A DNA stretch of 64,000 bases from NCBI GenBank assembly GCA_903906425.1, contig CAIVKH010000124.1:35981-99980 (forward strand), given 5' to 3'. This DNA is from an uncultured bacterium (lineage in GTDB: Bacteria > Verrucomicrobiota > Kiritimatiellia > CAIVKH01). The first letter of the stretch is position 1, and each line of letters starts with the position of its first letter. Under the pieces are notes generated by a model, which was not told the DNA's origin, made no database searches, and was given only the letters and a program-made list of their open reading frames with translations. The position numbers were made by a program, and so were the translations under genes. Shown piece after piece: positions 7,047 to 58,879 of the stretch.

Positions 7047-7056
7047 GGCGCACGGC

Positions 7057-7998
7057 TCAACTGAAGCCGTAGGTGTCTTTGACGATGAAGTTGGGGCGGC
7101 CCTTGATGTCGCGGTGGATCTTGCCGACGTAGATGCCGAGGATGCCGATGGTGAATAGAATCGTGCCGCCCAGGAAGATCATCGCGAGCGCCAGCCAGGA
7201 GACGCGCGAGCCGAAACCGAGGACGCTGGCGATGACGGCGAAGAACAGATAGATGAACGACAGGATCGAAACGATCATGCCGGCGAAGAGCGCGAAGTAC
7301 AGCGGCAGCGAGGAGAAGAGTGTGAGGCCGCGGATGAATTCCTTGTAGGGATTCGCGCTGCGCCACAGCGAAAACTTCGTCTCGCCGGCGAAGCGCGCCT
7401 CGCGTTCGTAGAACACCTGCACCTGCTTGAAGCCGACCCACGAGACCAGCCCGCGCATGAAAGGATCGAATTCGCCGAGCTTCAGAAGCTCAGACATGGC
7501 GCGGCGCGAGATGAGTTTGAAATCGCCGGTGTTTTCCAGAAGCGTGATGTCGGACATGGAGTTGATGGCGCGGTAGGCGGCCTTCGTGAGCGCCATCTTG
7601 AAGGCGTTCTCGCCGTGGCGGGCGGTGCGGGTGGTGTGAACGACATCGGCGCCCTTCTGCCATTCCGCGACGAGTTGCGGAATCAGTTCGGGCGGGTCCT
7701 GCAAGTCGCAATCCATGTACACGACCGCGTCGCCGGTGGCGTGATGGAATCCGGCGAGCACGCCGGGGGTGACGCCGAAGCGGCGGGACAGATTGACGAT
7801 CTTGACCTCGGGTGCGGTGGTTTCGTGCAGCTTGACGAGGATGTCGAGCGAGGCGTCGGTGGAGTTGTCGTTGACGAAGATGAATTCGCGGCGCAGCGGC
7901 AGCGGCGCGAGCGCGTCCTGCAGGCGCTTCACCAGTTCAGGAATGTTGTCGGCTTCGTTGCGGAACGAGAAGACGACGGACAGCAGCGGATTTTCCAT
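7057..7998 (-). CDS. Polyprenyl-phosphate glycosyltransferase, GT2 (GtrB/ArnC-like).
   Basis: MENPLLSVVFSFRNEADNIPELV...FVNDNSTD...YMDCDLQDPPE (DxD) plus two C-terminal TM helices. The ORF-track N-terminus (7999-8181) is REP read-through, so I placed the start at ATG 7998. Confidence 0.8.
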   Translation of the reverse strand: MENPLLSVVFSFRNEADNIPELVKRLQDALAPLPLRREFIFVNDNSTDASLDILVKLHETTAPEVKIVNLSRRFGVTPGVLAGFHHATGDAVVYMDCDLQDPPELIPQLVAEWQKGADVVHTTRTARHGENAFKMALTKAAYRAINSMSDITLLENTGDFKLISRRAMSELLKLGEFDPFMRGLVSWVGFKQVQVFYEREARFAGETKFSLWRSANPYKEFIRGLTLFSSLPLYFALFAGMIVSILSFIYLFFAVIASVLGFGSRVSWLALAMIFLGGTILFTIGILGIYVGKIHRDIKGRPNFIVKDTYGFS

Positions 7999-8088
7999 GA
8001 CAAACGGCCTCTCAAAATCGGCGGCAACTATGTTGATCCGCGAATCGATTGCAAGTCCCGATGCCAGCGCCGGCGCCGGGCCGATGGT

Positions 8089-8135
8089 TTCCAATGATTG
8101 GAAACTGCGGCAGCGCAGACTTCCAATGATTGGAA
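8089..8135. repeat. REP cluster 3: two copies of TTCCAATGATTGGAA.
   Basis: 8089-8103 and 8121-8135, in a divergent intergenic region. Confidence 0.95.
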
Positions 8136-8262
8136 ATTGCGATGTTTTGCGGCCGCTCGATCGCGCGGGGCGCAGGCGCATAATCGGGCCGGAAACCGGG
8201 GCGTTGGGGGCGGCTTGAGGATTGACAGGGGCGAAGGCGGACGTGTATGTACCGCGCCCTTT

Positions 8263-9501
8263 ATGACACCTTTTCCGGCCTCAAATTCTGTCGAAGATCC
8301 GGCCCTGACCGGCAAGACTTTCCGCAGCCAGCGTTACGATCTGGCGGTGGACACGATTTCGCGCGAGGAGATCGACGAGGTCATCAAGTGGCTGCAGGGT
8401 TATCCGCGCCTGACGATGGCCGACGAGACGAAGCGCTTCGAGGAGATGTGGTCGAAGTGGCTGGGCGTGAAGTACAGCGTGATGTGCAACTCGGGTTCGT
8501 CCGCGAATCTGCTGATGTACGCCGCCGCCGAGTCGTCGGGCCGCGCAAAGAAAAAGAAGATCATCGTGCCGGCGACGGGCTGGGCCACGACGATTGCGCC
8601 GGCCGTGCAATTCAACTGGCAGTCGGCGATGTGCGAGTCGTCGCGCAAGACGTTCGGCATGGATCCCGATCAGCTCGCTAAACTTTGCGAGCAGCACAGG
8701 CCGGAGGCGGTGATCGTTGTTCCGGTGCTCGGCGTGCCGTACGACGTGGACGCGATTCTGGAACTGAAGAAGAAATATGGTTTCATGCTTTTCGAGGATT
8801 GCTGCGCGAGCCACGGCGCGTTGCACAAGGGCCAAAAGATCGGAACGTTTGGCGACATGTCGTCGTTCTCGTTTTACTACGGCCACCACATGTCCACAAT
8901 CGAAGGCGGCGTCGTCAGCACGAATGACGAGGAGCTTTATCACCACCTGCTGATGCTCCGCAGCCACGGCTGGCTGAAGGATCTTCCGCAGGAGCTCGCC
9001 GACGCGACGAGGGCGAAATACGGGATCGATAATTTCCGGCAGCCTTTCACGTTCGTGATCCCCGGCTACAACCTGCGCCCGACCGATCTGAACGCGATCA
9101 TCGGCATGCTTCAGCTCAAGAAGCTCGACGCCACGGTGCAGCGCCGCGCTTCGAATCATCTCGTTTATCAGAAGGAACTCGCCGGCGTCGTCGAATTCGC
9201 GCCCGGGCTTCCCGGCGATACGATCAGCAGCATCTCGTTCTGCGCGGTGGCGCGCAGTTCGGCGGAGCGGAAGAAGATCGTCACCGAGCTCGACAAGAAC
9301 AAGATCGATACGCGGATTTTCACAGCTGGCAATCTCGGCTGTCATCCGTTTTGGTTTGAACGCTTCGGCAAGTTCTCGGCACCCGTCGCCGACTGGCTGA
9401 ACCAGGGTGGCTTCTTCCTGCCGAACAACCAGACGCTGGACCGCCCTGAAATCGAGTGGATTTGTGGTATCGTCCGCGATGCTGCAAAACGGAGCGGTTA
9501 A
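8263..9501 (+). CDS. DegT/DnrJ/EryC1/StrS-family PLP/PMP enzyme, RfbH (sugar 3-dehydrase)-like.
   Basis: LTMADETKRFEEMWSKWLGVKYSVMCNSGSSANLL...FSFYYGHHMSTIEGG. The NSGSSANL and xGHHxxxxEGG blocks are the RfbH/DegT pattern. Start moved to ATG 8263, downstream of the REP pair. Confidence 0.7.
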   Translation: MTPFPASNSVEDPALTGKTFRSQRYDLAVDTISREEIDEVIKWLQGYPRLTMADETKRFEEMWSKWLGVKYSVMCNSGSSANLLMYAAAESSGRAKKKKIIVPATGWATTIAPAVQFNWQSAMCESSRKTFGMDPDQLAKLCEQHRPEAVIVVPVLGVPYDVDAILELKKKYGFMLFEDCCASHGALHKGQKIGTFGDMSSFSFYYGHHMSTIEGGVVSTNDEELYHHLLMLRSHGWLKDLPQELADATRAKYGIDNFRQPFTFVIPGYNLRPTDLNAIIGMLQLKKLDATVQRRASNHLVYQKELAGVVEFAPGLPGDTISSISFCAVARSSAERKKIVTELDKNKIDTRIFTAGNLGCHPFWFERFGKFSAPVADWLNQGGFFLPNNQTLDRPEIEWICGIVRDAAKRSG

Positions 9502-11022: not shown

Positions 11023-11634
11023 ATGATCACGAAACTAACCAAACAGGACCTGCTCGATTTCGAAACCGAAATCGCCGACATCTTCAACGCCGCGAAAATC
11101 CGCGCGCCGGTTCATCTTTATTACGGCAACGAAGACGCGATGCTCGAAATCTTCAAGGACATCCGCGAAGACGACTGGGTGCTTTGCTCTTGGCGCAGCC
11201 ATTACCAATGCCTGCTCAAGGGCGTGCCGCGCGAGGAACTCAAAACCGAAATTCTCGCGGGCCGTTCGATTTCACTTTGCTTTCCAAAGCAGCGCGTCTT
11301 CTCGTCGGCCATCGTGACCGGATCGCTGCCGATCGCCACCGGCATCGCGCTGGCGATCAAGCGCACCGGCGGCACGAACAAAGTCTGGTGCTTTGCCGGT
11401 GATATGACTTCGGAGACCGGGCAGTTCTATGAGTGCCTCAAGTACGCCACGAACTTCGACCTGCCGATCCACTTCATCGTCGAGGACAATGGCAAATCCG
11501 TCTGCACCGACACGCGCGAAACGTGGAACCAGCCGGTCCTGACCTATGAAGGCATGAAGCATCCGCGCGTGACCTACTACAAATATCAAACCAAATATCC
11601 GCACGCCGGCGCAGGCCAGCGGGTGCAATTCTGA
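11023..11634 (+). CDS. ThDP-dependent dehydrogenase E1 alpha-like subunit, short form (203 aa).
   Basis: GSLPIATGIALAIKRTGGTNKVWCFAGDMTSETGQFYECLKYATNFDLPIHFIVEDNG is the GDG-x24-NN-type ThDP-binding motif region. Confidence 0.65.
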   Translation: MITKLTKQDLLDFETEIADIFNAAKIRAPVHLYYGNEDAMLEIFKDIREDDWVLCSWRSHYQCLLKGVPREELKTEILAGRSISLCFPKQRVFSSAIVTGSLPIATGIALAIKRTGGTNKVWCFAGDMTSETGQFYECLKYATNFDLPIHFIVEDNGKSVCTDTRETWNQPVLTYEGMKHPRVTYYKYQTKYPHAGAGQRVQF

Positions 11635-11636
11635 CC

Positions 11637-12173
11637 ATGAAATATTTCGATGAACTGAAACGCAGCATGGACTTCCTCGCGCAGGATTCGCGCGTGATGT
11701 TTCTCGGCCAGGCCGTCGCGTGCGCCGGCACCGCGATGTCGAACACGCTCAAGGACGTTTCGAAAACGAAGCTGCTCGAACTTCCCGTCTGCGAAGAACT
11801 GCAAATGGGAATGACCAACGGCCTCGCGCTCGCCGGCCTCGTCCCCGTCACCATTTTTCCCCGCTGGAATTTTTTGGTGCTCGCCGTCAATCAGATTGTC
11901 AACCACCTCGACAAAATGAAAATCATGTCGAATGGCGGCTATCAGCCCAAGGTGATCATCCGGACCGGCATCGGCTCCGAGCGCCCGCTGCACCCGCAGC
12001 ACCAGCACGTCGGCGACTTCACCGCCGCCTTCCGCCTCATGTGCCAGAACATCGAAATCATCCGCCTCGACGAAGCCGACCAGATTTTTCCCGCCTACAA
12101 AAAAGCCCTCGACCGCACCGACGGCAAAAGCACGATCATCGTCGAATACGGCGACTACTATAACGAGAAGTGA
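11637..12173 (+). CDS. ThDP-dependent dehydrogenase E1 beta-like (pyrimidine-binding) subunit, short form (178 aa).
   Basis: VMFLGQAV...LELPVCEELQMGMTNGLALAGLVPVTIFPRWNF resembles the transketolase Pyr domain. Starts 2 nt after the alpha-like gene. Confidence 0.65.
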   Translation: MKYFDELKRSMDFLAQDSRVMFLGQAVACAGTAMSNTLKDVSKTKLLELPVCEELQMGMTNGLALAGLVPVTIFPRWNFLVLAVNQIVNHLDKMKIMSNGGYQPKVIIRTGIGSERPLHPQHQHVGDFTAAFRLMCQNIEIIRLDEADQIFPAYKKALDRTDGKSTIIVEYGDYYNEK

Positions 12174-12188
12174 TCGCGGCCCGATTTC

Positions 12189-12235
12189 TTCCAATCATTG
12201 GAACTTGCCCGCCCGATAACTTCCAATCATTGGAA
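12189..12235. repeat. REP cluster 4: two copies.
   Basis: 12189-12203 and 12221-12235, between convergent genes. Confidence 0.95.
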
Positions 12236-17677: not shown

Positions 17678-17789
17678 TTCCAATCATTGGAAAAACCCGA
17701 CGTCGAAATCTTCCAACCATTGGAAAACCCGCGGCGGCAATTTTCCAATCATTGGAAATGCGGCAGCCGGAATCTTCCAATCATTGGAA
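17678..17789. repeat. REP cluster 5: four copies.
   Basis: 17678-17692, 17711-17725 (ttccaaccattggaa, one mismatch), 17743-17757 and 17775-17789. Pitch 33/32/32 bp. Confidence 0.95.
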
Positions 17790-30972: not shown

Positions 30973-31416
30973 GTGGATGTCGATACCGGCGGGGAGCGGT
31001 TTCTTTACATGCATCCCAAGTGGGGCCACCCGGCCTGGCAGTCCGATTCGCGCACCATCGTCGAGGCGGGCAATCTGCTTTTCGACAGCGACACCGGCAG
31101 GAGCCGGAAGATCCCCGAACTGCCGTATTTCGGTTCCGGTCATCCCTCCGCCAGTCCGGACAGCACGCTTCTGGTCACCGACACGACGATGGATCGCGTC
31201 GGCGGGAATCCGAAGGAGTGGGGAATCGTCGTCGCCGACATGCGCGGGACAAACTTCGTCGTGGTTCATCACTTCGACAATTCACGCGGCGCACACTCAT
31301 GGCGCTCGTCGCATCCGCATCCCGTGTTCAGCGCCGACGGACGCCGCATCTATTTCAACGTGAGCAGCGGCCCCTGGACGCAATTGTTCGTCGCCGCCCA
31401 AGAGAAGTTCCAATGA
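30973..31416 (+). pseudogene. C-terminal remnant of a TolB-like / oligogalacturonate-lyase-like beta-propeller gene.
   Basis: The 147-aa ORF opens with GTG only 47 nt from the divergent Kelch start. It reads like the last blades only (SHPHPVFSADGRRIYFNVSSGPWTQLFV) and has no N-terminal domain or signal peptide. Confidence 0.4.
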
Positions 31417-31487
31417 TTGGAAACAAGCGATGACGGAAACTTCCAATCATTGGAACTCCACGCTGCGACAGCTTCCAAAGACTGGAA
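31408..31487. repeat. REP cluster 8: two canonical copies plus one variant.
   Basis: 31408-31422, 31441-31455, and the variant ttccaaagactggaa at 31473-31487. Confidence 0.9.
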
Positions 31488-31508
31488 GAAATGCACAGGC
31501 ATTCGCGG

Positions 31509-31646
31509 TCACGCGCCCGGCCGGTTGCGGCGGATCGTTTCGCCGTTGGTCGCGTTGCCCGCCACGACGTGATCCTTGAGCGGGAAGATGCGCTCGTGCA
31601 TCGCGCCGGAAATCCGCGCGGGCCCCGGGGGAAACGCGGCATTCAT
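31509..31646 (-). pseudogene. Relic copy C of the E1 gene 3' end (last 45 codons plus stop).
   Basis: Hand translation gives MNAAFPPGPARISGAMHERIFPLKDHVVAGNATNGETIRRNRPGA*. The intact E1 end reads [46 protein letters not shown] counted 30 mismatches over 138 aligned nt. Confidence 0.8.
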
Positions 31647-31712
31647 CGCGGCCCGGGGATATAAATTGGCGCATCCCTTGCATCTTCGCTCAAGTGGCGT
31701 ACCTCTTCGCCC

Positions 31713-32201
31713 ATGAATAAACTACTCGTCACAGCCATCGCCGTTGTCGCGCTTGCCATCGGTGCCACCGCCAAAACCTACAGCCTGCCCAAGGAGGACT
31801 CGATCGCCTCCGTCACCATCCCGGATGGATGGAAGGTGGAAGCCGAGGACGAAAGCCTCACGATTACGAGCAAGGATGAAACCATCGAGATCACGATGGA
31901 GATCCTCGGCGAAGACCAGCTCGAAGGCGCCATCATCGAAAACGTGGGCTACCTGAAGAAGCACAAGGTCAACATCGACGAGAAGTCCGAGAAGAAGACC
32001 TCCGGCGAGATCAACGGCCTGAAGGCCACCTTCTATGCCAAGACCGGCAAGGACGAAGACGGCCCGTGCAACATCAGCGAGATCTTCGTGCGCCTGTCCG
32101 ACAAGAAGCTCATTTCGATGCTCTACTGGGCCCCGGGCAAAATCGAGCAGGCCCAGCTCGATGACATCAAAACCATATTGAACAGCATCAAGAAGAAATA
32201 G
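31713..32201 (+). CDS. Small secreted hypothetical protein.
   Basis: 162 aa with signal peptide MNKLLVTAIAVVALAIGATA and Lys/Glu-rich mature composition. No motif recognised. Confidence 0.6.
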   Translation: MNKLLVTAIAVVALAIGATAKTYSLPKEDSIASVTIPDGWKVEAEDESLTITSKDETIEITMEILGEDQLEGAIIENVGYLKKHKVNIDEKSEKKTSGEINGLKATFYAKTGKDEDGPCNISEIFVRLSDKKLISMLYWAPGKIEQAQLDDIKTILNSIKKK

Positions 32202-32308
32202 CCCCCGCCCGAAGAATGGATGAAAGAGCCGGCCCTCGTGGACCGGCTCTTTGCTTTTGCCCCGCACGGCACCCCGGTCGGGGTTGCGCCAGACACTCAG
32301 ACCGCCGA

Positions 32309-32680
32309 CGCGCCCAAGTCCGCCGCCAACTTGCCCAAGTCCGTGACGAACTTGATCAAGGGCGTCGCCGCCGTGATCCGGACACGGCAAACTTGCCCAA
32401 GGACGCCGCAGTTTTGCCCACGCTCGCGATGTCCTCGACCGAGGACGCCACGAACTCGCCCAATGGAACGATGGACATGCCCTGGTTCGTCACCACCTTG
32501 CCCAAGGAAGCGGCGAACTCGCCTAAGGCCGTCGCCAGCTCGCCCAAAGAAACGGTGAACTTGCCCAAGGACGCGACAGACTTGCCCAAGGTGCTCGTGA
32601 ACTTGCCCAAGAAAACGATGGACTTGCTCAAGGACGCGGCAAACTTGCCTAAGTTCACGACGAACTTGCCCAAGTTTATC
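32309..32680. repeat. Array of about 18 tandem 21-bp units with core CTTGCCCAAG. It may encode a heptad-repeat protein.
   Basis: Core starts at 32309, 32330 and 32351, then 14 cores from 32392 to 32665 spaced every 21 bp. The 32351-to-32392 step is 41 bp, that is 2x21 minus 1. Seven cores are exact. Open frames exist on both strands (NLPKxxx on plus, LGKFxxS on minus). Confidence 0.9.
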
Positions 32681-32887
32681 GCGTCCGGAAGCTAAATCTT
32701 CGTCCGATTAGTCACGCAGACGGCTTAATTGCAGCGCCTTGCGTCACAAGTGGCAAAATCATCAAAAAATGCCGCCTGTCGGCTGGCAACCCGGCATCCT
32801 TCCTCGCCCCGGTTCGCCGGGACGCTCCCTTCAAAGATTTGTTCGATTTGTGTACTGGCTGAATTCATGAACCTCCGTGCGGAGCAC

Positions 32888-32934
32888 TTCCAATCATTGG
32901 AAATCACCGCCGCGACAACTTCCAAAGATTGGAA
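32888..32934. repeat. REP cluster 9: one canonical copy plus one variant.
   Basis: 32888-32902, and the variant ttccaaagattggaa at 32920-32934. Confidence 0.9.
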
Positions 32935-32994
32935 AAAATCAGGCGCGGGCATTTCTGCCCGCGCCGGTTCGCGTCCATTCGCGTTGATTCGCGC

Positions 32995-33180
32995 TTACAC
33001 GCCAAGTCTGTTGCGGCGGATCGCTTCGCCGTTGGTCGCGTTGCTGGTCACGCCGTGATCATTGAGCGGGATGATGCGCTCGTGGATGGCGTCGAGGATC
33101 CATGCGGGCTGCGGGAAGAAGTCGTTTTCCATTTCGGCGCAGGGCGTGATCCAGTTGCGCGAGCCGACGACGACGGGCGG
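32995..33180 (-). pseudogene. Relic copy B of the E1 gene 3' end (last 61 codons plus stop).
   Basis: Aligns without gaps to 34219-34404 with 12 mismatches over 186 nt (hand count). Ten of the 12 are synonymous. Homology stops abruptly after ...gacgacgacgggcgg. Confidence 0.9.
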
Positions 33181-33197
33181 CGAGTACAAAAGATCGA

Positions 33198-33887
33198 CTA
33201 TTTGCTCTTTATCAGCCACGCAAGTACCGCGCCGAGAACGGCACTGAAAGTTGCCAGCAGAACTTTGCTTTTAGTGTCTCTTGAAGCACGTTCAGTCTCG
33301 GTTTTGCGGCTGCGCTGTGTCCATTCCTGAAGTGCAGGAATTGCGGCGGCAATTCGAGACATGGCATCTGCCAATTCGGTCACGATTTTCCGGTATTCGC
33401 GGATAAGATCTAATGTCTCGTGTTTTGTAATGTCCTTGTTCGTGCGAATCGTGGCGACTTGCTGTGCGATTTGTTCCAGACGAGGGCGGATCGTGTGATA
33501 ATAGTCTGGAAACACCGCGGTGATGCATTCGTTTGAGTAGCCAGCAAGCATCTGAAGCGTCTTTTCGCGGAGCGAAATTTGCAGCCAGTCCGCCGCATCA
33601 AAGAACGCGCGAAATTCATGGCCTATGGCTTTGCGAAGCGACTGCTCGATATATTCAGAATCCGCCGGATTCCGCTGTTCGAGCATTCCCAATTCACAGG
33701 CCATGGCTCGCATGATGTGTTCGAGCGCGTGCCGCTGTTCCATCGCGGGCTGGAGAAAATCCAGCAATTCGGGATCTGTTTCTTCGGCGAGAATAAAAAG
33801 CGACTTGCAATGATTATGGATTTCAACCAATTCGCGCCAGAGTCGCTCGCAGGGCTTTGCGGAATTGCCCGGCTCCGCGCCGCTCAT
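33198..33887 (-). CDS. Hypothetical helical protein with a C-terminal transmembrane anchor (cargo gene 2).
   Basis: 229 aa with C-terminal VLLATFSAVLGAVLAWLI. Contains QRHALEH, which fits an Rx4H pattern. About 47% GC in the one 60-nt line I counted. Its ATG overlaps the stop of the upstream small ORF (ATGA). Confidence 0.6.
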   Translation of the reverse strand: MSGAEPGNSAKPCERLWRELVEIHNHCKSLFILAEETDPELLDFLQPAMEQRHALEHIMRAMACELGMLEQRNPADSEYIEQSLRKAIGHEFRAFFDAADWLQISLREKTLQMLAGYSNECITAVFPDYYHTIRPRLEQIAQQVATIRTNKDITKHETLDLIREYRKIVTELADAMSRIAAAIPALQEWTQRSRKTETERASRDTKSKVLLATFSAVLGAVLAWLIKSK

Positions 33888-34084
33888 GGGAGGCTGCGCG
33901 CCATCACGTCGCGCCGCTTAGTTTCAAACCTCTCCGTCGTGTAGATGCGGGATGATGAAATCCTCACACTACCGCGAAATCGTCCGCTTTCGTTCGTGGT
34001 CACCTGAACCGTACGTTCCGAGACCGGACGATCCGAAGGAAAGTCACGCGTCAGAACGGCTCGCCATTCCAAGAGTTTCGTCAT
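33884..34084 (-). CDS. Small basic hypothetical protein (66 aa, cargo gene 1).
   Basis: ATG 34084 is preceded by GGAGGA with a 6-nt spacer. Translationally coupled to the 229-aa gene. No motif recognised. Confidence 0.5.
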   Translation of the reverse strand: MTKLLEWRAVLTRDFPSDRPVSERTVQVTTNESGRFRGSVRISSSRIYTTERFETKRRDVMARSLP

Positions 34085-34218
34085 CACATTTCCTCCGCTG
34101 CTCATTGGCGGTGCAGTCTATTCAAGACATCACAACGATGTCCACCCGTAATTTGTAGTCTTCTAAACTCGATTGCAAGTTGGCACTCATTTCGTCTGCG
34201 CAGTGAAGTTTTGTCAAT

Positions 34219-36672
34219 CTATACGCCGAGCCGGTTGCGGCGGATCGCCTCGCCGTTCGTCGCGTTGCTGGTCACGACGTGATCCTTGAGCGGGATGATG
34301 CGCTCGTGGATGGCGTCGAGGATCCACGCGGGCTGCGGGAAGAAGTCGTTCTCCATTTCGGCGCAGGGCGTGATCCAGTTGCGGGAGCCGACGACGACGG
34401 GCGGGGCGTCGAGGTGGTCGAATGCAAGCTGGCCGAGGTTGGCGGCGATAGTTTGCATGATCGAACCGCGTTCGCTGGCGTCGCCGGCGACAAGCACGCG
34501 TCCGGTCTTCTTCACCGATTCGACGAGCGGTGTGTAGTCGAGCGGGTTGAGCGTGCGGCAGTCCCAGATGTCGGCGGTCATGCCGTATTTCTTTTCGAGA
34601 ATGTCGGCGGCTTCGATCGCGCGATAGAGCGTCGCGCCGATCGTGACGAGCGTGATGTCCTTTCCAACGCGGCGTTGCGCGGGCAGGCCGAACGGGATTT
34701 CGTAGTAGCCGGCGGGCACGGTCGGCTCGAACATTTCGCCGATGTCGTAGGTGCGCTGGCTCTCGAAGAACACGACGGGATCGCTTCCGGCGAGCGCGGT
34801 GTTGAGCAGGCCCTTGGCGTCGTACGGCGTGTTCGGGAACACGACCTTGAGGCCGGGGATGTGGTTGCAGATTGCGGTCCAGTCCTGCGAGTGCTGCGCG
34901 CCGTATTTCGAGCCGACGGACACGCGGAGCACGACGGGCATTTCGAGGACGCCCGCGCTCATGCTCTGCCACTTGGAAAGCTGGTTGAAGATTTCGTCGC
35001 CCGCGCGGCCCATGAAATCGCAGTACATCAGCTCGACGAGCGCACGCCCGCCGTCGAGCGCGTAGCCGACGGCCGTGCCGACGATCGCGCCCTCGGAGAT
35101 CGGCGAGTTGAAGAGGCGGTGATACGGCAGCGCCTCGGTGAGTCCGCGATAGCACGCGAACGCCCCGCCCCAGTCGCGATTTTCTTCGCCGTAGATCACG
35201 AGCGTCGGGTCGATCTTCGCGCGGTGGAGGATCGCTTCGAAGATGCCGTCGCGAAGCTGATAGACCTTGTTCTTCGGCGTCGGCTTGCCCTCGTGCATGC
35301 CGCTGCGGATCTTCTTCGCGATGGCGGCCACGCGCGGATTGTCGTCGCCGGCCTGCAGCAGATCGGGCTTGCGCGTCGTGTCGTACGATTCGACTTTGCG
35401 ATTCGAGAACATGAAGTCCTCGATCTTCGCGCCATCGAGCCGCGGCGAGATCGTCATGTCGCTCGCGAGCTTGAGCGACTTCGTGACGATGCCCTTGACG
35501 TTCGCGATGAGCTTCTGCTGCGCCGCGTCGTCGAGGATTTTGATCTTCTTGAGGTTCTCCGCGAACGTGATGATCGGATCAATCTTCGCCCACAGGTCGA
35601 GCTCCTCCTTCGTGCGGTACGACGACGCATCGGACGGCGAGTGACCGGAGAAGCGGTACGTCAGCGTGTCGAGCAGCACCGGCCCGTTGCCCTCTTCGAG
35701 AATTTTCCGCTTGCGCGCAATCGCGTCGGCGACGGCGAGCGGGTTGTAGCCGTCCACGCGTTCCGCGTGCATGCCGTCCTTGTTCACGCCGAGACCGAAG
35801 CGGGCGACGTAATCGTAGCCCATCGTCTCGCCGGACGTCTGGCCGCCCATGCCGTAGAAATTGTTCATGATGTTGAAAATGATCGGCAGCCCGCCGCGAT
35901 GCCCCTTTTCCCAGAGGTGATAGAGTTGGCCCATCGAGGCGAAGTTCATGCCTTCCCAAACCGGACCGCAGCCCATCGAGGCGTCGCCGACGTTGCAGAT
36001 AACCAGGCCCTTCTTACCGTTCACGCGTTTGAACAGCGCCGCGCCGGCGGAGATGTCGCCGGAGCCGCCGACGATTGCGTTGTTCGGATACACGCCGAAC
36101 GGCGGGAAGAACGCGTGCATCGAGCCGCCGAGGCCGCGATTGAAGCCGGCCTTGCGTCCGAAAATTTCCGCGAGCGCGCCGTACGTCAGAAAATCAACCG
36201 CGAGCTCCTTCACCGAGCCGCTGAAATGTTTTTCGACGATCGCGAGACACTCGCCGCCGAGATATTCCTTCATGATCTTTTGCAGCGACGCGTCGTCGAG
36301 CTTGTGAATCGCCGACAAACCCTTCGCGAGAATTTCGCCGTGCGAGCGGTGCGAGCCGTAGATGTGATCATCAACCGTCAGATGAAATGCCTGCCCGACG
36401 GCGGCCGCTTCCTGGCCCATGGACAGATGCGCCGGACCTTTGTGGTCATACGCGACGCCGTTGTACGAGCCTTCCGTCTTGATCGCGTGCAACATGCTTT
36501 CGAATTCGCGGATGAGGAGCATGTCCTCATAAATGCCGAGCAGCGCCTGTGCGCCGAGTGACTTCAATTCCTTCTCAATCGGCGTCGCATACTGGTTCAG
36601 CGGAATTTCCGGAGCCGTCAGCTTCGCGGGTTTACGTTCTTTTGCGGGATCTACAATTAGTGCCTTTGGCAT
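34219..36672 (-). CDS. 2-oxoacid dehydrogenase E1 component, fused alpha-beta subunits (ThDP-dependent).
   Basis: 817 aa. The alpha part carries [17 protein letters not shown]...[13 protein letters not shown]. The beta part carries [17 protein letters not shown]...[12 protein letters not shown]3 and E2 genes lie upstream on the same strand. Confidence 0.9.
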
Positions 36673-36722: not shown

Positions 36723-36769
36723 TTCCAATCATTGGAAAACTCCGCCGCGCAAACTTCCAATCGTTGGAA
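36723..36769. repeat. REP cluster 10: two copies.
   Basis: 36723-36737 and 36755-36769 (ttccaatcgttggaa, one mismatch). Confidence 0.9.
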
Positions 36770-36824: not shown

Positions 36825-39596
36825 CTATGTGATTCCATCCGCCGTCGTGTTGTTTTCTGCAAGTGGTAAGTGCATGTAGAAAACCGACCCAACTCCGGGC
36901 ACACTTTCCACATCTATGATTCCTTTGTGCTCATACACGATGCCGTGCGTGACGCTGAGACCAAGTCCAGTTCCGGTATTCTTTGTTGTAAAGAATGGAT
37001 CGAATATGTGGGGAAGATGATTGGGACCAATGCCCACTCCTTGGTCACGAATTGCAACTGTTAGGAATCTGCCTTTGTTAGCGGTCGTAATAGTAAGGCA
37101 CCCTCCGTTTTCCATAGCTTCCACACCATTGAGCATAAGATTAAGAAATGCCTGCTGTAACAAATCCGAGTCTCCAAGAACAAAATCATCGGGCGCACGC
37201 CAATCAGTTGACAAACGCACTTTCTTTTTCTCAAGATGACCACGAAAAAGACCAAGAGTCTGCTCAAGGATTGCGTGAACAGACACAGGCTTAAATATTG
37301 GCTGACGCGGACGAGCAAATCTGAGAAGACTATTCACCATTGAATCGATCCGCGAGATTTCTTGAGACATCAATGGCATGCCAGTCGCACGGAACTCTTC
37401 GTCATTATATCGTTCCGGGAGTAATTGGCAGAACGTCTTGAGAACTTGTAATGGGTTCTTGATTTCATGCGCCATGCCGGCTGCAAGCGTACCCACGCTA
37501 GCAAGCCGCTCCGTTCTTCTTGTCGCGCGTACTGATTCAGTCTTTTCGCGAGATGCAGAAATATATTCAATCAATTCTTTTTTGAGGTACTCCGCGTTCG
37601 CTTTGACCATGTCCTCGGCTTCATCAAGAAGACGGCCTTCTGGAATCAGAAGATCGTCCGGTTTGCGCTCAGCTTGCCATCGCGCCGCGTTCTCCGTTAC
37701 CCTTGCGCGTGTCTGTATGAACAGACGATTGTCACTAATCCATCTGGCCAATCGTGGCCACTTATCCAATAACACTTCGTGCGTAACATATACGATGGAC
37801 GCACCCGTGGTATCACGCTGGGTTGCCAATAGCCTACCATCGATGAGCTTCTCCACGACAGCTCGCATCTCTGTGTCACGGCAGATGTCTTCGGTTCGAG
37901 CATAAGTTCTGGATACGGTCTCCCGGTCTCCGGGGCCGGTACTAACAAGAGCATGGAATACGGCGGGCAGTTTCTGTCTAGCTTTGTCTGAAAGAGCCGC
38001 GACAATCTTTTCAGCGTGCGCGCAAACGGCTCCTTCCACACCACCTATTTCATCGTATGCCGCATTGGTGAGCACGCCTAATGAAGCACAACGCGCGTAA
38101 AGTTCAGTCAAGGTGAACTCAAGGAGGGGGAGACTCCCGGGGTTGTTAACAGCGGCATCTCTGAGCCGATCATCCAGAGGTTCTCCTGTGACGGGATGTC
38201 TTTCATAATGCAAGCCTGCCGCCGCCGCTGGCATTCTTACAGCGACACCGATGTCGGCCGGGGTCGGTGGTCCAAGATGATACTGTCCAAGTCCTTTCAT
38301 CAGCAACTGTAAGTCCGGAACTTCCTCGCAGCGATGGTAGAAATCGCTACGAAGCGTGGCCAATACCCAAATAACACCCGACTTCGATAACAGAGAGAGG
38401 ATTCGCGCAAAGACACGCCTTTCATCAGCACTGATTGTATCAAGAGTGAACATTTCTTCCATTTGGTCAATGACGAGTGCGATCCGCCAAGAGCTCCTGC
38501 TGATGCCAGTGTTTGGGACCGGCTCCCGAGACGACGGTGAAGCCAAGATCCGTGCGACGATCTCGCACGCAGCTTCAGGGCGTTCTCGCAGCGTACGATC
38601 AAAGTCCTCTGCGTCCATTCCGAGGCGGAGCATATTGTTCCGTAGAGGTATTGTGTTTAAGAGACAAGTGGCAAGTCCATCAATTAGGCTGCGCGGCGAG
38701 TCACTTGGGCGAAATATGCAATGCGCCCATGCTGTTGTTCCGTCGACAACGCCAGGTCTGACGAGTAGCGGTAAGACTCCTGCGCGGATCAAGGATGACT
38801 TACCGCAACCACTCATGCCCAGAACAGTCACGAACAAGGCTTCGCCGCGAGTAAGACTTCGCCGCCGAAGATTGCTGACAATGTCGGCTATTGCTTGAGT
38901 ACGACCAAAGAATATTTGCGAATGCTCGAACTCGAATACCTCGAGGCCACGAAATGGGCATCCATTCGTCCAAGACTTTGCGATGCTCCCAATTCTGGCC
39001 TGTTGTTCTCGGGCAGGAATTGCACGCTCTAACAACCTTCTGAGATGCATCTCGACCAACTTTTCAAACTCATCCGCGGTTGCGAAGCGATGAAGTGTAG
39101 CTGTGGGCAATCGGGTCTCTTCATGCTTAAACCAAGAATCGATGAAAGCATCGAGATTCTTCCTCTGTGACAGGCGTTGCAGGACCTCGACTTCTTCCGC
39201 GAGGCTCACTACGGGAATCTCCATCTTTCGATACACAAGCAAGTCCGGTTTCCCTCTCGCGGCGAAACCACGCGCAGCATCTTCGAACTCGAACGCGGTC
39301 CCGGACTCGTAAGCACTGCCGTCGGGGCGTCGGAAATGTGGTGGTAGTCGCGTTCCTAGACGGGACCATAAAATGCAGATCACGGCATCGCATTGAGATG
39401 GCAGCGTCAATTGATCCTGTGGATGCTCAACAGCGCTTAAGGGTTCCTGTTCCCAGAATATTGGCTCAATAGGCAAACCAGCAGCGAATTCTGCACGAAG
39501 ACGGAGCAAGACTCGCTCAACGAGGAGGCGTTCATGCTCTACGTCTCCGGGCGATGATACGAAAACCCGAAACATCGATTGGCCATTTTTCGTCAT
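36825..39596 (-). CDS. TIR-like/DUF4062 domain - nSTAND-type P-loop NTPase - histidine kinase (HisKA plus HATPase_c) fusion, 923 aa.
   Basis: N-terminus: FRVFVSSPGDVEHERLL...CDAVICILWSRLGT. NTPase: Walker A VLGMSGCGKSSLIRAGVLP (nt about 38793-38819), Walker B LVIDQMEEMFT, then LRSDFY, PGSLPLLEFTLTELY, YDEIGGVEGAV and THEVLLDKWPRLARWI. Kinase: H-box AAGMAHEIKNPL (His710, nt 37467-37469), N-box LNLMLNGVEAM, G-boxes DQGVGI and GTGLGLS. Start has RBS GAGGAG. About 47-48% GC in two hand-counted lines. Confidence 0.8.
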   Translation of the reverse strand: MTKNGQSMFRVFVSSPGDVEHERLLVERVLLRLRAEFAAGLPIEPIFWEQEPLSAVEHPQDQLTLPSQCDAVICILWSRLGTRLPPHFRRPDGSAYESGTAFEFEDAARGFAARGKPDLLVYRKMEIPVVSLAEEVEVLQRLSQRKNLDAFIDSWFKHEETRLPTATLHRFATADEFEKLVEMHLRRLLERAIPAREQQARIGSIAKSWTNGCPFRGLEVFEFEHSQIFFGRTQAIADIVSNLRRRSLTRGEALFVTVLGMSGCGKSSLIRAGVLPLLVRPGVVDGTTAWAHCIFRPSDSPRSLIDGLATCLLNTIPLRNNMLRLGMDAEDFDRTLRERPEAACEIVARILASPSSREPVPNTGISRSSWRIALVIDQMEEMFTLDTISADERRVFARILSLLSKSGVIWVLATLRSDFYHRCEEVPDLQLLMKGLGQYHLGPPTPADIGVAVRMPAAAAGLHYERHPVTGEPLDDRLRDAAVNNPGSLPLLEFTLTELYARCASLGVLTNAAYDEIGGVEGAVCAHAEKIVAALSDKARQKLPAVFHALVSTGPGDRETVSRTYARTEDICRDTEMRAVVEKLIDGRLLATQRDTTGASIVYVTHEVLLDKWPRLARWISDNRLFIQTRARVTENAARWQAERKPDDLLIPEGRLLDEAEDMVKANAEYLKKELIEYISASREKTESVRATRRTERLASVGTLAAGMAHEIKNPLQVLKTFCQLLPERYNDEEFRATGMPLMSQEISRIDSMVNSLLRFARPRQPIFKPVSVHAILEQTLGLFRGHLEKKKVRLSTDWRAPDDFVLGDSDLLQQAFLNLMLNGVEAMENGGCLTITTANKGRFLTVAIRDQGVGIGPNHLPHIFDPFFTTKNTGTGLGLSVTHGIVYEHKGIIDVESVPGVGSVFYMHLPLAENNTTADGIT

Positions 39597-41178: not shown

Positions 41179-41225
41179 TTCCAATGATTGGAAGTTTGCG
41201 GGCCGCATTTTTCCAATCATTGGAA
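41179..41225. repeat. REP cluster 11: two copies.
   Basis: 41179-41193 (G centre) and 41211-41225 (C centre), between the E2 stop and the E3 start. Confidence 0.95.
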
Positions 41226-45732: not shown

Positions 45733-46800
45733 TCACGCGGCGCCGGAGCCTTTGATATCAATGATGAAGATGTCGGGCTGGCAGTAGATACGAAAGGCCG
45801 GGCCGCTGGCGCCGACGCCGCTGGCGACGAAGAGGTGGGTGTCGCGCACGATGAAGTGGCCGTGATCGAAGCGGCGGCCATAGACGGAGGGCGCGACGAA
45901 CGGGCCGAAGTGCGGAATGCGGAACTGGCCGGCGTGGAGGTGGCCGGAGAAAACGCAGTTGGCGGTGGTGCGGGCGAGGCGATAGATGTTGTCGGGCGTG
46001 TGGGAGAGCACGAGATGGAGCGTGCCGGCGCCCGCGCTCGGGACTTCGAATCCGCGGTCGCCCCACGGGTGGTCGAGGCCGGTGATGAGAATGGAATCGC
46101 CGGCGGTGACCGATTCGCAATTCAATGTTTTGATGCCGGCCTCGCTGACGGTGCGCCGGACGGCGGGTGCGTCGGCGTAGTAGTCGTGGTTGCCGAGCAC
46201 GGCGAAAATGCCGCGGCGGCCAACCCGGCGCAGTATTCTTTTCACGATGGGCAGCGCGGCAGCATCGGAGATGATATCGCCGGTGACGAAAACGAAGTCG
46301 GGGCTGGTTTCCGCGGCGAGGTCGAAGACGTTCCGGAAATAGGATTCGGGAATCTGATCGCTGACGTGTAGGTCGGAGATGTGCGCGATGCACACGGAAC
46401 TGCCGCGCCATCCGGGGACGCGGATCTCGTAACGGTGGGTGACGATGTTGGTGGTGGTGAACGGGCGCGCGAGTTGAAATGGATGCGGCACGCTGTCAAC
46501 GGGCCGACTGCCCGCGTGGATGCGGCGGAGCAGGAGCCGGCGGCATTCGCCGGCGAGCAGCAGGAACAGCGTGCCGACGATCAAGACGCCTCGCGTGGGG
46601 CCGCCAATCACGAGTGCGATGGCAAGAAAGCTGCCGACGGAAAGCACGAAGGCGGTGAGGAGGGCGGCTTTCTTGGCCGGACCGTCGCGCATCAGCGTCA
46701 GGATGCGATTGGCGATGGTGAGAAATATGGCGGTACCCGCAGCGAGCGCGAGCAGCATTGCGACGAGACTTTGGAACGTTTCGGACATCTGGCGAAACAT
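45733..46800 (-). CDS. Membrane-anchored metallophosphoesterase.
   Basis: N-terminal TM helices, then HISDLHVS, VTGDIISD, LGNHDYY and GHLHAGQ calcineurin-like motifs. The ORF-track N-terminus above 46800 is REP read-through. Confidence 0.8.
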   Translation of the reverse strand: MFRQMSETFQSLVAMLLALAAGTAIFLTIANRILTLMRDGPAKKAALLTAFVLSVGSFLAIALVIGGPTRGVLIVGTLFLLLAGECRRLLLRRIHAGSRPVDSVPHPFQLARPFTTTNIVTHRYEIRVPGWRGSSVCIAHISDLHVSDQIPESYFRNVFDLAAETSPDFVFVTGDIISDAAALPIVKRILRRVGRRGIFAVLGNHDYYADAPAVRRTVSEAGIKTLNCESVTAGDSILITGLDHPWGDRGFEVPSAGAGTLHLVLSHTPDNIYRLARTTANCVFSGHLHAGQFRIPHFGPFVAPSVYGRRFDHGHFIVRDTHLFVASGVGASGPAFRIYCQPDIFIIDIKGSGAA

Positions 46801-46814
46801 AATCCCATCGGGCC

Positions 46815-46862
46815 TTCCAATCATTGGAAAACTGCGCGCCCGCTCTTTTCCAATGATTGGAA
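46815..46862. repeat. REP cluster 13: two copies.
   Basis: 46815-46829 and 46848-46862, in a divergent intergenic region. Confidence 0.95.
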
Positions 46863-46969
46863 AAGACCGCGCCGGCAATGCGGGCGGCGGCGCTGGATCG
46901 CCGGCGCGCTTGTGGCACGGGCCGGCGGATGATAGCGTCGCTCTCCGGCAAGTCATGGAGAGGTGGTCA

Positions 46970-49222
46970 ATGAATGTCTGGAAATTGGCGGTGGCGCTGG
47001 CGTGTTTTGCGGCCGCGGAGGCGATGGCGCAGGCGCCGCAGCTCATCAACTATCAGGGCCGCCTGCTGAATGGCACGAACCTGGCGAATGGAAACATCGG
47101 GCTGTCGCTCCGGCTGTTCGACCAGCCGACGAACGGCAACAGGCTCTACGAAGATTCCAACACGGTCGCGGTCGCCGATGGCCTGTATTCGACATTTCTG
47201 GGCGACAACACGACGGCCGGTTCGCTCGCGACGGCGCTCGGCGCGACGAATCTATTTCTCGAAGTGGCGGTGAACGGCGCGGCGCTCTCGCCGCGCGAAC
47301 GCGTCGTTTCGGTCGCGTATTCGTTCAACGCGCAGACGGCGCAGGGCGTTGTTCCGGGCGGCATCACCTCGCAAATGCTCGCCGCCGGCGCGGTCGCATC
47401 GGTGAACATCGCGACGGGTGCCGTGACGTCGTTGAGCATCGCGGCGGGTGCCGTCACCACGGCAAATCTCGGAAGCAACTCGGTGACGACGGCGACGCTC
47501 GCAGACGGCGCGGTGACTGCGGCAAAAGTTTTGCAGGCGGCGGTGAATCTGCCGCTGCTGGCGACCATCACAAATCCCGCACCGGTGCTGAATGGAAATT
47601 TTGGATATGCCGTGACGGTTCTTGGCACGAACCGCTTTCTGGTGACGGCCATCAACGACGGGACAAATTCAGCAGGCCAGGCATTTCTTTACGATCTGAA
47701 TGGCGGCTTCATTCAGGCGATCACGAATCCGATGTCGGCGTCAGGCGATAATTTCGGAACGGCCGTTGCGTGCGTCGGCGGAAACCGGTTCATCGTCGGC
47801 GCGCCGAACAACGACACCGGCGCGGCGAACGCTGGTTGCGCGCATCTCTACGACTTCAACGGAAACCTGCTGGCGACGATAACCAATCCGACGCCGCAGG
47901 CAACGGACAACTTCGGGCAGTCCGCCGCGGCCGTCGGGTCGAATCGTTTTGTGATCGGCGCGCCCGGCGATCGCACCGGCGCGCTGCAGGCCGGCTCGGT
48001 TTATCTCTACAACTCAAACGGCGTTTTGCAGACCACCGTCAACAACCCGTCGCCCTCGGCCACGGACAACTTTGGCCAGAGCGTGGCCGGCGTCGGAACC
48101 AACCGTTTCGTGGTCGGCGAACCGAATTTTGACGTGGGCACCAACGGCAATTGCGGCATCGCGCACCTCTACGATTTCAACGGAAATCTGATTGTCACGA
48201 TCACGAATCCCGCGCCAGCATCGGGCGATAATTTTGGCAGTTCCTTCGCGGCCGTCGGCGCGAACCGGTTTGTCATCGGCGCACCCAACGACAGCGCGGG
48301 CGCTTCCGGCGCGGGCAGCGTTTATCTTTACGACGTCAACGGCGCGCTCATCGCGACCATCACGAATCCGGCGCCCGTTGCGAACGAGAAGTTCGGAGCG
48401 GCCATCGCAGGTGTCGGAAACAACCGCTTCGCTGTCGGCGTTTCGGGTCTCAACGTCGGATCAACGGCGAACGCCGGCGGCATTTATGTTTTCGACTACG
48501 ACGGCAATTTGCTCGCTTCGCTCAAAAATCCCGCGCCGTCGCTCCAGGCCTCGTTCGGCTCTTCGATTGCCTTCGCCGGAAACGATCGCATCGTGATCGG
48601 AACACCGATGGACAACACCGGCGCGACGGGCGCGGGCGTGGCCGGGCTGTATCAGATGTCCGGCTATGCCGCCGGAATCATCGCCGAGGGCGTGCGTGCC
48701 GGCGGCGTCACCGTTGACATGCTCTCGTCGGCCGTCGAAACCCGTTATGTTCACAGCGCCGGCGACACGATGACGGGCAACTTGACGGTTCCATTGCTGA
48801 CGGCCACCGCCGAGATCGTCACGCCCTGGCTCACCACCGCCTCGATCAGCGCGAGCGGTCCGGTCAGCGCGTCGGCGATGGCGCCCGGCAACGCGGGCAC
48901 CAACATCGTTTCGCAGGTGGGCGAACTCACGCGCCGCACGGCCCCGATCGCGTATCTCGTTTCAACCGGCACGACGGCCATCGCAGCCACCAACATGTAC
49001 AACTGCACCGCCGCGCGCTTGGGCGGCGGCACATACCGGATCACATTCGCCGCACAGCCCGCCAGCGCGTTTTATTCGCCGGCCATCACGCCGGTGAGCA
49101 GCGCGCCGTGTTTCGTCAGCGTCACGAACACGACCGTGGCGAATTTCGACTTTGTGATTTTCGGCACGAACGGACTCCCGCAGGACGCGCCGTTTCGCGT
49201 CATCGTCTTCGGCGGCTACTGA
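46970..49222 (+). CDS. Secreted FG-GAP-like repeat (beta-propeller) protein with an N-terminal fibre-like region.
   Basis: Signal MNVWKLAVALACFAAAEAMA, with RBS GGAGAGG. About 8 repeats of ITNPxPxxxDNFGxSxAxVGxNRFVIGAPxD...YLYDxNG. Upstream region holds GAVTxxxIAxGAVT repeats. Confidence 0.7.
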   Translation: MNVWKLAVALACFAAAEAMAQAPQLINYQGRLLNGTNLANGNIGLSLRLFDQPTNGNRLYEDSNTVAVADGLYSTFLGDNTTAGSLATALGATNLFLEVAVNGAALSPRERVVSVAYSFNAQTAQGVVPGGITSQMLAAGAVASVNIATGAVTSLSIAAGAVTTANLGSNSVTTATLADGAVTAAKVLQAAVNLPLLATITNPAPVLNGNFGYAVTVLGTNRFLVTAINDGTNSAGQAFLYDLNGGFIQAITNPMSASGDNFGTAVACVGGNRFIVGAPNNDTGAANAGCAHLYDFNGNLLATITNPTPQATDNFGQSAAAVGSNRFVIGAPGDRTGALQAGSVYLYNSNGVLQTTVNNPSPSATDNFGQSVAGVGTNRFVVGEPNFDVGTNGNCGIAHLYDFNGNLIVTITNPAPASGDNFGSSFAAVGANRFVIGAPNDSAGASGAGSVYLYDVNGALIATITNPAPVANEKFGAAIAGVGNNRFAVGVSGLNVGSTANAGGIYVFDYDGNLLASLKNPAPSLQASFGSSIAFAGNDRIVIGTPMDNTGATGAGVAGLYQMSGYAAGIIAEGVRAGGVTVDMLSSAVETRYVHSAGDTMTGNLTVPLLTATAEIVTPWLTTASISASGPVSASAMAPGNAGTNIVSQVGELTRRTAPIAYLVSTGTTAIAATNMYNCTAARLGGGTYRITFAAQPASAFYSPAITPVSSAPCFVSVTNTTVANFDFVIFGTNGLPQDAPFRVIVFGGY

Positions 49223-58800: not shown

Positions 58801-58879
58801 TTCCAATGATTGGAAATTCCGCCGCCGCAAACTTCCAATCATTGGAAAAACACGGTTCGGAAATTTCCAATCATTGGAA
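58801..58879. repeat. REP cluster 17: three copies.
   Basis: 58801-58815, 58833-58847 and 58865-58879, exact 32-bp pitch. Confidence 0.95.

Follow-up and report, generated by a model that had tools for sequence, protein, structure and literature searches.

Serial copies of a dehydrogenase E1 gene end in an uncultured Kiritimatiellia bacterium as a possible scar of stacked insertions

In Escherichia coli K-12, the final 165 nt of icd come from the prophage e14, and the resident gene end is displaced as the pseudogene icdC (the attachment is described in PMC6379469). Phage 21 in icd follows the same pattern, in which the element replaces the last ~55–60 codons of a central-metabolism gene and the resident end becomes a pseudogene on the far side of the insert. 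Tandem accretion of elements at a gene end is reportedly exemplified by ICESt1 and ICESt3 in the 3′ end of fda, as Pavlovic is said to have shown in 2004, and Jackson is said to have described C-terminal displacement in Rhs/CdiA toxin arrays in 2009. In the established route of accretion, an element integrates and decays to a cis-mobilizable element (CIME) that has no integrase but retains its attachment sites, attL and attR, after which another element is added to it (PMC5704250). Here we describe a comparable arrangement downstream of an E1 gene, which encodes the fused alpha/beta E1 subunit of a 2-oxoacid dehydrogenase, in the uncultured Kiritimatiellia bacterium CAIVKH01. The gene lies within a 64,000-nt stretch of contig CAIVKH010000124.1 (GCA_903906425.1, positions 35,981–99,980 of the forward strand), which we analysed as a whole and refer to as the window. 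Beyond the intact gene lie two further copies of its own 3′ end, each separated from the copy before it by unrelated cargo.

We refer to the live end of E1 as copy A and to the two displaced copies as relics B and C (Table 1). A first-pass annotation, made from the letters of the window alone, had reported that the last 186 nt of E1 recur at relic B without gaps and with 12 mismatches, and computed alignment confirmed this (93.5% identity). Ten of the 12 mismatches are synonymous, with the stop change TAG/TAA counted among them, and the other two are non-synonymous (K→N and V→G). The annotation had also placed a copy of the last 138 nt at relic C. This copy is present, with 31 mismatches to A rather than the 30 first counted and with 32 to B, and its BLAST-supported homology covers 116–129 nt (E 5e-30). 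Protein identity to the live E1 tail is 97% for B and about 63% for the decayed C. The copies are direct repeats in register, spaced by 1224 and 1486 nt. Homology had been said to end abruptly at the inner edge of each relic; the inner edge of B is indeed sharp, but that of C fades, since identity is 62% over the inner 48 nt and 86% over the outer 90 nt (Fisher p = 0.003). A protein-level extension of relic B past 33180 proved spurious, its alignment being gapped. Self-comparison of the window returned as dispersed repeats only the E1-end copies, repetitive extragenic palindromic (REP) elements and one internally repetitive gene. A dispersed repeat family unrelated to E1 is thereby ruled out, as the relics match the E1 end alone and have no other copies in the window.

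Copy A starts on a 13-residue motif that is conserved, or nearly so, in 45 of 45 listed relatives, and the motif residues P, V, G, R, N, W, I and P are invariant in a 26-sequence alignment. At the inner edge of B, a 20-nt block lying on this motif is identical to A; longer identical A/B blocks exist elsewhere in the repeat, and the limits of the C repeat differ. All three ends carry the tail motif NATNGE. Because this motif is otherwise limited to some of the closest (~90% identical) relatives, C comes from the same narrow lineage as the other two ends. The mismatches are unevenly spread: A and B differ at 3 positions in the inner 119 nt and at 9 in the outer 67 nt (p = 0.009), and C shows the opposite distribution, with 18 mismatches in its inner 48 nt and 13 in its outer 90 nt (p = 0.003). 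This unevenness could stem from gene conversion, from linkage of the alleles to different flanks or from the remnant of an attachment-site arm.

The divergence between A and B is that of coding sequence under selection, with a synonymous divergence (dS) of 0.248, a non-synonymous divergence (dN) of 0.014 and a dN/dS of 0.058. The corresponding ratio for C is 0.72–0.79, and C is therefore a decayed pseudogene. We simulated duplication in place, with a live copy that takes synonymous changes only and a relic that decays neutrally, and found two or fewer non-synonymous changes among 12 differences in 0.08–0.26% of runs. Because duplication in place followed by neutral decay is thus rejected (P 0.0008–0.0026), most of the A–B divergence arose in working alleles of separate lineages, as the first-pass annotation had argued from the excess of synonymous differences. 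Both non-synonymous changes are derived in B and, judged from the aligned sequences, would fit a short period of decay after displacement. Comparison of icd with icdC gives the same counts, 12 mismatches over 165 nt with 10 synonymous and two not. A diversity-generating retroelement was considered as a source of the differences and is ruled out: there is no reverse transcriptase domain, copy B has A at only 6 of the 12 mismatches, and 10 of the 12 are synonymous.

The sequence beyond each relic is also informative about how far the copies extend. Each relic retains its own stop codon (TAA in B and TGA in C) followed by palindromic REP-like elements, an arrangement that had been noticed at first reading and that holds. 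The flanking repeats are short imperfect palindromes with many intergenic copies at regular spacing, as in REPs and bacterial interspersed mosaic elements. The palindrome TTCCAATSATTGGAA, counted with the pattern TTCCAANNNTTGGAA, occurs in 40 copies in 18 clusters of the window, compared with 0.1 expected by chance; the copies are mostly doublets or triplets with a period of 32–33 nt, and they form a genome-wide REP family. Example clusters lie at 2470–2516, 17678–17789, 36723–36769, 41179–41225 and 58801–58879, some of them between genes of the E2-E3-E1 cluster. The doublets beside C and B are 87% identical, whereas either is at most 70% identical to any other doublet of the window, and a centre variant AGA is common to these two and occurs nowhere else in it. 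Since the two doublets are each other's closest relatives, the B–C duplication crosses the stop codon into the 3′ flank. It extends over 31439–31646 at C and 32886–33132 at B, and A–B homology ends at the stop codon. The terminator-like hairpin downstream of B is the sole one of its kind in the window and, from its sequence and place, was probably the former terminator of E1.

Table 1 Positions of the E1 gene, its displaced ends, the cargo between them and other features of the window
Feature	Position	Strand	Description
Intact E1 gene	34219–36672	−	817 aa; fused E1 alpha/beta subunit, 2-oxoacid dehydrogenase
Copy A	34219–34404	−	Live final 61 codons and stop TAG; proposed incoming gene end of the younger insertion
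E1-end nucleotide sequence			CCGCCCGTCGTCGTCGGCTC...
Promoter-like site	34144–34115	−	From promoter scan; upstream of ORF73
Cargo 1	33181–34218	−	1038 nt, GC 52%; ORF73 and ORF229
ORF73	33884–34105	−	In cargo 1; 4-nt overlap with ORF229
ORF229	33198–33887	−	In cargo 1
Relic B	32995–33180	−	Displaced E1 end, 61 codons and stop TAA
Intrinsic-terminator-like hairpin	32942–32965	−	10 pairs, 9 of them G-C, then a T run; 30 nt past the B stop
REP doublet of the B block	32886–32939	not assigned	Homologous to the doublet after C
Cargo 2	31647–32885	+	ORF162 and 21-nt tandem array
Tandem array	32307–32687	both strands open	21-nt period, RACTTGCCCAAG and 9 variable bases, about 17 units
ORF162	31713–32201	+	Signal-peptide-like N-terminus
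Relic C	31509–31646	−	Older, decayed E1 end, 45 codons and stop TGA
REP triplet after relic C	31402–31492	not assigned	Two REPs nearest the relic (31439–31492) match the B doublet
923-aa gene	36825–39596	−	DUF4062, nSTAND1 NTPase, HisKA and HATPase_c; GC 52%; between E3 and E1
Short E1_dh-like ORF	11023–11634	+	203 aa; in a glycosyltransferase/epimerase cluster

We propose that the array records two insertions, one after the other, at the 3′ end of E1, both by site-specific integration and now reduced to stacked, CIME-like remnants devoid of integrase; we give this explanation roughly an even chance. Incoming DNA, circular or acting as if it were, would have brought a copy of the gene end with it. 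A single reciprocal crossover inside this copy would place the incoming end on the live gene and shove the resident end downstream as a relic, together with its terminator and REPs, and the cargo would be left between two copies that correspond to attL and attR. The genome would at first have read E1(C end)–REPs; the B end would have come next, bringing cargo 2 as well as its terminator and REP doublet, and the A end would have followed with cargo 1. The likeliest agents would be site-specific gene-end integrators of the kind represented by e14 and phage 21 in icd, or by ICEs as well as integrative and mobilizable elements (IMEs) at other gene ends, and these elements would since have shed the recombinase and most other content. 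We infer the circular intermediate, the enzyme acting at a specific site and the decay that followed. The core of what the first-pass annotation had suggested, that incoming DNA with its own E1 end twice displaced the resident end outward, is supported by the data above.

The geometry of the locus fits this proposal, with direct repeats of the gene end flanking each insert (186 nt at 93.5% identity for A/B, about 130 nt plus flank for B/C) and the live gene intact. A site-specific agent is favoured because two events fall within the last 190 nt of one gene, because B starts on the conserved motif with its 20-nt identical block, and because the divergence equals that of e14. Site preference would explain two events within 190 nt, which for two random illegitimate joins would be a coincidence. 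From its sequence, the start of B on a conserved motif with an identical 20-nt block would be a typical choice of attachment core, and the terminator and REPs retained by relic B are what might be expected of a former true gene end.

In comparison with e14 and phage 21, the locus shares the replacement of the last codons of a metabolic gene and the pseudogene on the far side, together with some similarity past the stop codon and several relic copies per genome. Up to four copies of the icd end were found per genome among 5,414 E. coli genomes carrying it, and multiple relics at one gene end are therefore already known. The differences lie in scale and content, e14 being 15 kb long with an integrase and an excisionase (intE, xisE) and the present inserts being 1.0–1.2 kb long without a recombinase; in the target gene, E1, and the host, a member of the Planctomycetes–Verrucomicrobia–Chlamydiae (PVC) group that is uncultured; and in the mismatches, which are evenly spread between icd and icdC and here, between A and B, clustered near the stop. 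As in CIMEs and in ICE/IME accretion, stacked inserts are split by copies of the target gene end, the integration genes are lost and repeats like attL and attR are kept; relic B is common to both inserts, and neither contains a recombinase or transfer gene, in keeping with the definition in PMC5704250. Unlike in CIME accretion, the repeats here are long (138–186 nt or more) and unequal in extent, and the newer insert adjoins the live gene end, whereas the review describes accretion at the attR site (PMC5704250). No intact ICE or IME relative of these inserts was found.

The DNA between the copies had been called cargo in the first-pass annotation, which is supported for cargo 1 by its composition and by the occurrence of its module in other phyla, and for ORF162 by a homologue in another context. 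The GC content of cargo 1 is 52%, compared with 62% for E1 and 60% for the window, and its sequence stops 17 nt past the stop codon of ORF229. The ORF229 family comprises 35 other proteins at 37–51% identity, from Kiritimatiellia, Syntrophales and Lentisphaerae metagenome-assembled genomes, and a 65-aa homologue of ORF73 precedes the ORF229 homologue in three of three contexts examined. In these contexts, the neighbours of the ORF229 homologue are variable and of defence type (type III restriction-modification, Fic, SocA_Panacea). More distant relatives of ORF229 occur on two IMG/VR contigs and in one record deposited as a Monoglobus plasmid. Neither ORF73 nor ORF229 matched Pfam, PADLOC or NCBIfam. 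The AlphaFold model of ORF229 (predicted local distance difference test score, pLDDT, 91) is a bundle of helices, of which the C-terminal one is long, and has no significant match in the PDB. Cargo 1 is thus foreign in character: it is a real two-gene module that is horizontally scattered and is not a recombinase, and ORF73-ORF229 is a candidate new accessory or defence pair.

In ORF73 we observed the motif KLKDWRDVLT..RFRGSMRVSTGRIWT, and in ORF229 an invariant motif DKAIGHxYRAFFDAADW together with a hydrophobic C-terminal helix. A HEPN-type toxin, suggested for ORF229 by an Rx4H-like motif, is unsupported, there being no family match and a confident model with no significant PDB match. A terminal inverted repeat seen by eye at the ends of cargo 1 (GTACAAAA / TTTTGTC) is too short to serve as evidence. 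On another contig, L089, an ORF65-ORF229 module (7794–8690) is flanked by diverged direct copies at 7055–7469 and about 9085–9373, the flanking unit being a 3′ fragment of a DNA methylase and a small ORF whose two paralogues are 56 and 68 aa long. Here, too, the module may lie between displaced copies of a gene end.

Cargo 2 is of a different make. ORF162 has two homologues at 60–63% identity, one of which stands among unrelated genes with no E1 nearby. The tandem array is open on both strands, with ORF159 and its NLPK heptads on the plus strand and an ORF of 105 aa on the minus strand; different gene callers choose different coding strands, and the array is either a repeat protein or a non-coding array. 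On contig L102, a REP doublet and GC hairpin block (4629–4707) lies 136 nt upstream of an ORF162 homologue (4843–5331, 60% identity) and is 72.5% identical to window positions 32886–32965, the block after relic B. There is no E1 gene near the homologue on this contig, and no remnant of the E1 tail is detectable upstream of it, alignment scores there being no better than those of shuffled sequence.

We surveyed 80 species-representative E1 loci (62–83% protein identity) and four contigs of the 90% protein cluster (~83–84% DNA identity). A second copy of the E1 end is absent from all 84 loci, the closest of them being only ~83–84% identical in DNA; the array is therefore an insertion state and not a feature of the family. 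The genes downstream of the 84 loci are unrelated to those of the window and to one another. Our search for recombinases covered the ORFs of the inserts, thirty further ORFs compared with Pfam, and precomputed Pfam annotation of ~23.7–46.7 kb; several of the scanned window ORFs have no Pfam match of any kind. No recombinase domain was found in ORF73, ORF229, ORF162 or the repeat ORF, and the inserts contain no transfer gene. A tRNA or other RNA gene as the real target is ruled out, as none is present at the site.

Several observations weigh against site-specific integration. Among the ORFs examined across the 64-kb window there is no tyrosine or serine recombinase at the sensitivity of Pfam, so that the earlier statement that no integrase is present holds within this scope, and no recombinase is encoded within either insert. 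The inserts, at 1.0 and 1.2 kb, are very small. No single fixed attachment site is evident, because the duplicated segments are unequal in extent, running from −186 to 0 in one case and from about −138 to +110 relative to the stop in the other. The clustering of A–B mismatches in the outer 67 nt is not predicted by a simple crossover. B and C share a REP doublet of chromosomal type, and the incoming copy thus resembles the orthologous stretch of a related strain's chromosome more than an element's mimic of the gene end. A metagenome scan with a tail-specific pattern gave one chance match and no relative whose site was empty or occupied by other cargo, and three scans of IMG/VR, two protein-based and one with a DNA motif, turned up no E1 end on viral contigs. 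The likeness to gene-3′-end integrators that had first been noticed therefore holds numerically, in the agreement with icd and icdC, but neither a recombinase nor an attachment core was found to go with it, nor was an empty site, other cargo or an E1 end carried by an element.

The strongest competitor, which we hold to be a plausible but less likely account, is displacement driven by recombination without a dedicated recombinase, in which chromosomal DNA of related strains with different neighbourhoods downstream of E1 displaced the resident end. This could proceed by homology-facilitated illegitimate recombination anchored in E1, or by a RecA-mediated single crossover of a circularised fragment. 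All three ends carry NATNGE, so that the donors would be close relatives (dS 0.25 between A and B), and since B and C share the REP doublet and a short stretch past the stop, the incoming copy would be an orthologous segment of chromosome. No recombinase turned up in the window, the boundaries of the duplications vary, and both flanks of E1 vary among relatives. Moreover, A–B identity drops towards the non-homologous junction, as it should where alleles of a recombining population are linked to different accessory regions. A precedent and a proposed mechanism come from the displacement of Rhs C-terminal ends and from effector–immunity arrays of type VI secretion systems (Kirchberger 2017, PMC5361080), where, as here, serial displaced 3′ ends follow one full-length gene and have been shifted by incoming modules.

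These arrays also differ from the E1 locus in ways that count against such displacement. Their displaced ends are distinct, polymorphic and non-homologous toxin domains, each with an immunity gene, whereas those of E1 are near-identical tails of a conserved enzyme that depends on thiamine pyrophosphate (TPP); they have no functional polymorphism, and toxin domains and cognate immunity genes are absent. Homology-facilitated illegitimate recombination is orders of magnitude rarer than ordinary homologous replacement (PMC5361080), and two such rare joins would both be needed within the last 190 nt of the gene. With ends that are 94% identical, heteroduplex should reach the stop codon, and an illegitimate join would then be expected downstream, leaving no relic.

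A further variant of insertion, which we think improbable, is that the inserts are complete as they stand: minimal cassettes of about 1.0–1.3 kb, each with one small operon and a replacement gene end, stacked by a trans-acting recombinase or by host recombination. Hints in this direction are the end of cargo 1 just past the ORF229 stop, the module of contig L089 between copies of a gene 3′ fragment, and the presence of a STAND-type gene on the other side of E1.

Local tandem duplication of E1, with downstream copies that long remained functional before deletions and unrelated insertions removed their 5′ parts, is less probable still. Direct in-register repeats at regular spacing are what it would leave, and divergence under purifying selection is possible between functional tandem paralogues. 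However, no related locus of the 84 has a second copy, tandem paralogues that are 94% identical would be unstable, and several independent deletions would be needed, each sparing only the gene end. The position of a foreign module of low GC exactly between the copies would also be left unexplained, and simple duplication followed by decay is rejected by the simulation described above.

The array is supported by separately assembled contigs as well as by the GenBank assembly. A 14,152-nt contig of ERZ1426631 has the same gene order across the whole array, a comparison made at the level of gene order, and four contigs from ENA and Logan assemblies are 99.8–100% identical to the window. Of these, L081 (99.98% identical) carries the junction of E1 with cargo 1; L088 (100% identical) runs from cargo 1 through relic B and the REPs into the beginning of cargo 2; and L086 and L087, from an ENA and a Logan assembly, span cargo 2, relic C and the downstream genes. 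Jointly they cover all three junctions, and the assemblies may share source samples. In the BUCK21-1 sample, the region falls into three contigs that abut at 33785/33791 and 32132/32137 with overlaps of 6–7 nt, the latter break lying at the same base in the ENA and Logan assemblies, which may hint at uneven coverage or population heterogeneity in the array. That an assembler stitched strain variants of the E1 end in series is nevertheless scarcely credible: the sequences that meet at the junctions are non-homologous (cargo against E1 position −186) and offer no shared k-mer for a false join, and each junction is internal to a contig in at least two assemblies, in addition to the gene order in ERZ1426631.

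E1 itself contains the Pfam domains E1_dh, Transket_pyr and Transketolase_C, with matches to the NCBIfam models of pyruvate dehydrogenase E1 alpha/beta that fall under the cut-off, and it is the final gene of a DeoR-E2-E3-(insert)-E1 cluster. In most relatives E3 immediately precedes E1; in two of them (L082 and L083) a GH28 gene stands in between, and in the window the 923-aa gene with an nSTAND1 NTPase and histidine-kinase domains occupies this place. With a STAND gene, a GH28 gene or nothing upstream and with different genes downstream (L082, L084, L085), both flanks of E1 are variable, and the upstream flank is also an insertion site. No relic or repeat is present at the insertion of the nSTAND1–histidine-kinase gene. 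Elsewhere in the window, the short E1_dh-like ORF adjoins, in another frame, an ORF that starts MKYFDELKRS..., and the pair, spanning 11023–12194 on the plus strand, is probably a split TPP-dependent enzyme. The E1-like gene at this place was considered as a 5′ relic of E1 and is ruled out, since it belongs to a polysaccharide cluster, encodes a split TPP enzyme of its own and is only 25% identical. Diverged tandem repeats (47718–48440, 66–71% identity, period ~160–320 nt) were also observed within the gene for a 900-aa FG-GAP repeat protein (46520–49222).

The array extends a known footprint, that of e14 in icd and of CIME accretion, to a new gene and lineage; the footprint and its tandem form are themselves well known. 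To our knowledge, E1 has not been reported as an attachment site. If the inserts were indeed complete cassettes, the locus would be an integron-like accretion site without IntI or attC, through which accessory or defence-type genes enter a hotspot at a housekeeping operon of the PVC group, and if such cassettes move without a recombinase of their own, this would bear on how small defence or accessory islets enter hotspots that lack mobile-element genes. The relics form a natural time series, with B at a dS of 0.25 and two decay substitutions and C fully decayed, from which testable predictions can be made about intermediate haplotypes of the source populations. The locus thus offers a clean, datable record of how a housekeeping operon of an uncultured PVC-group bacterium gathers accessory genes at its end.

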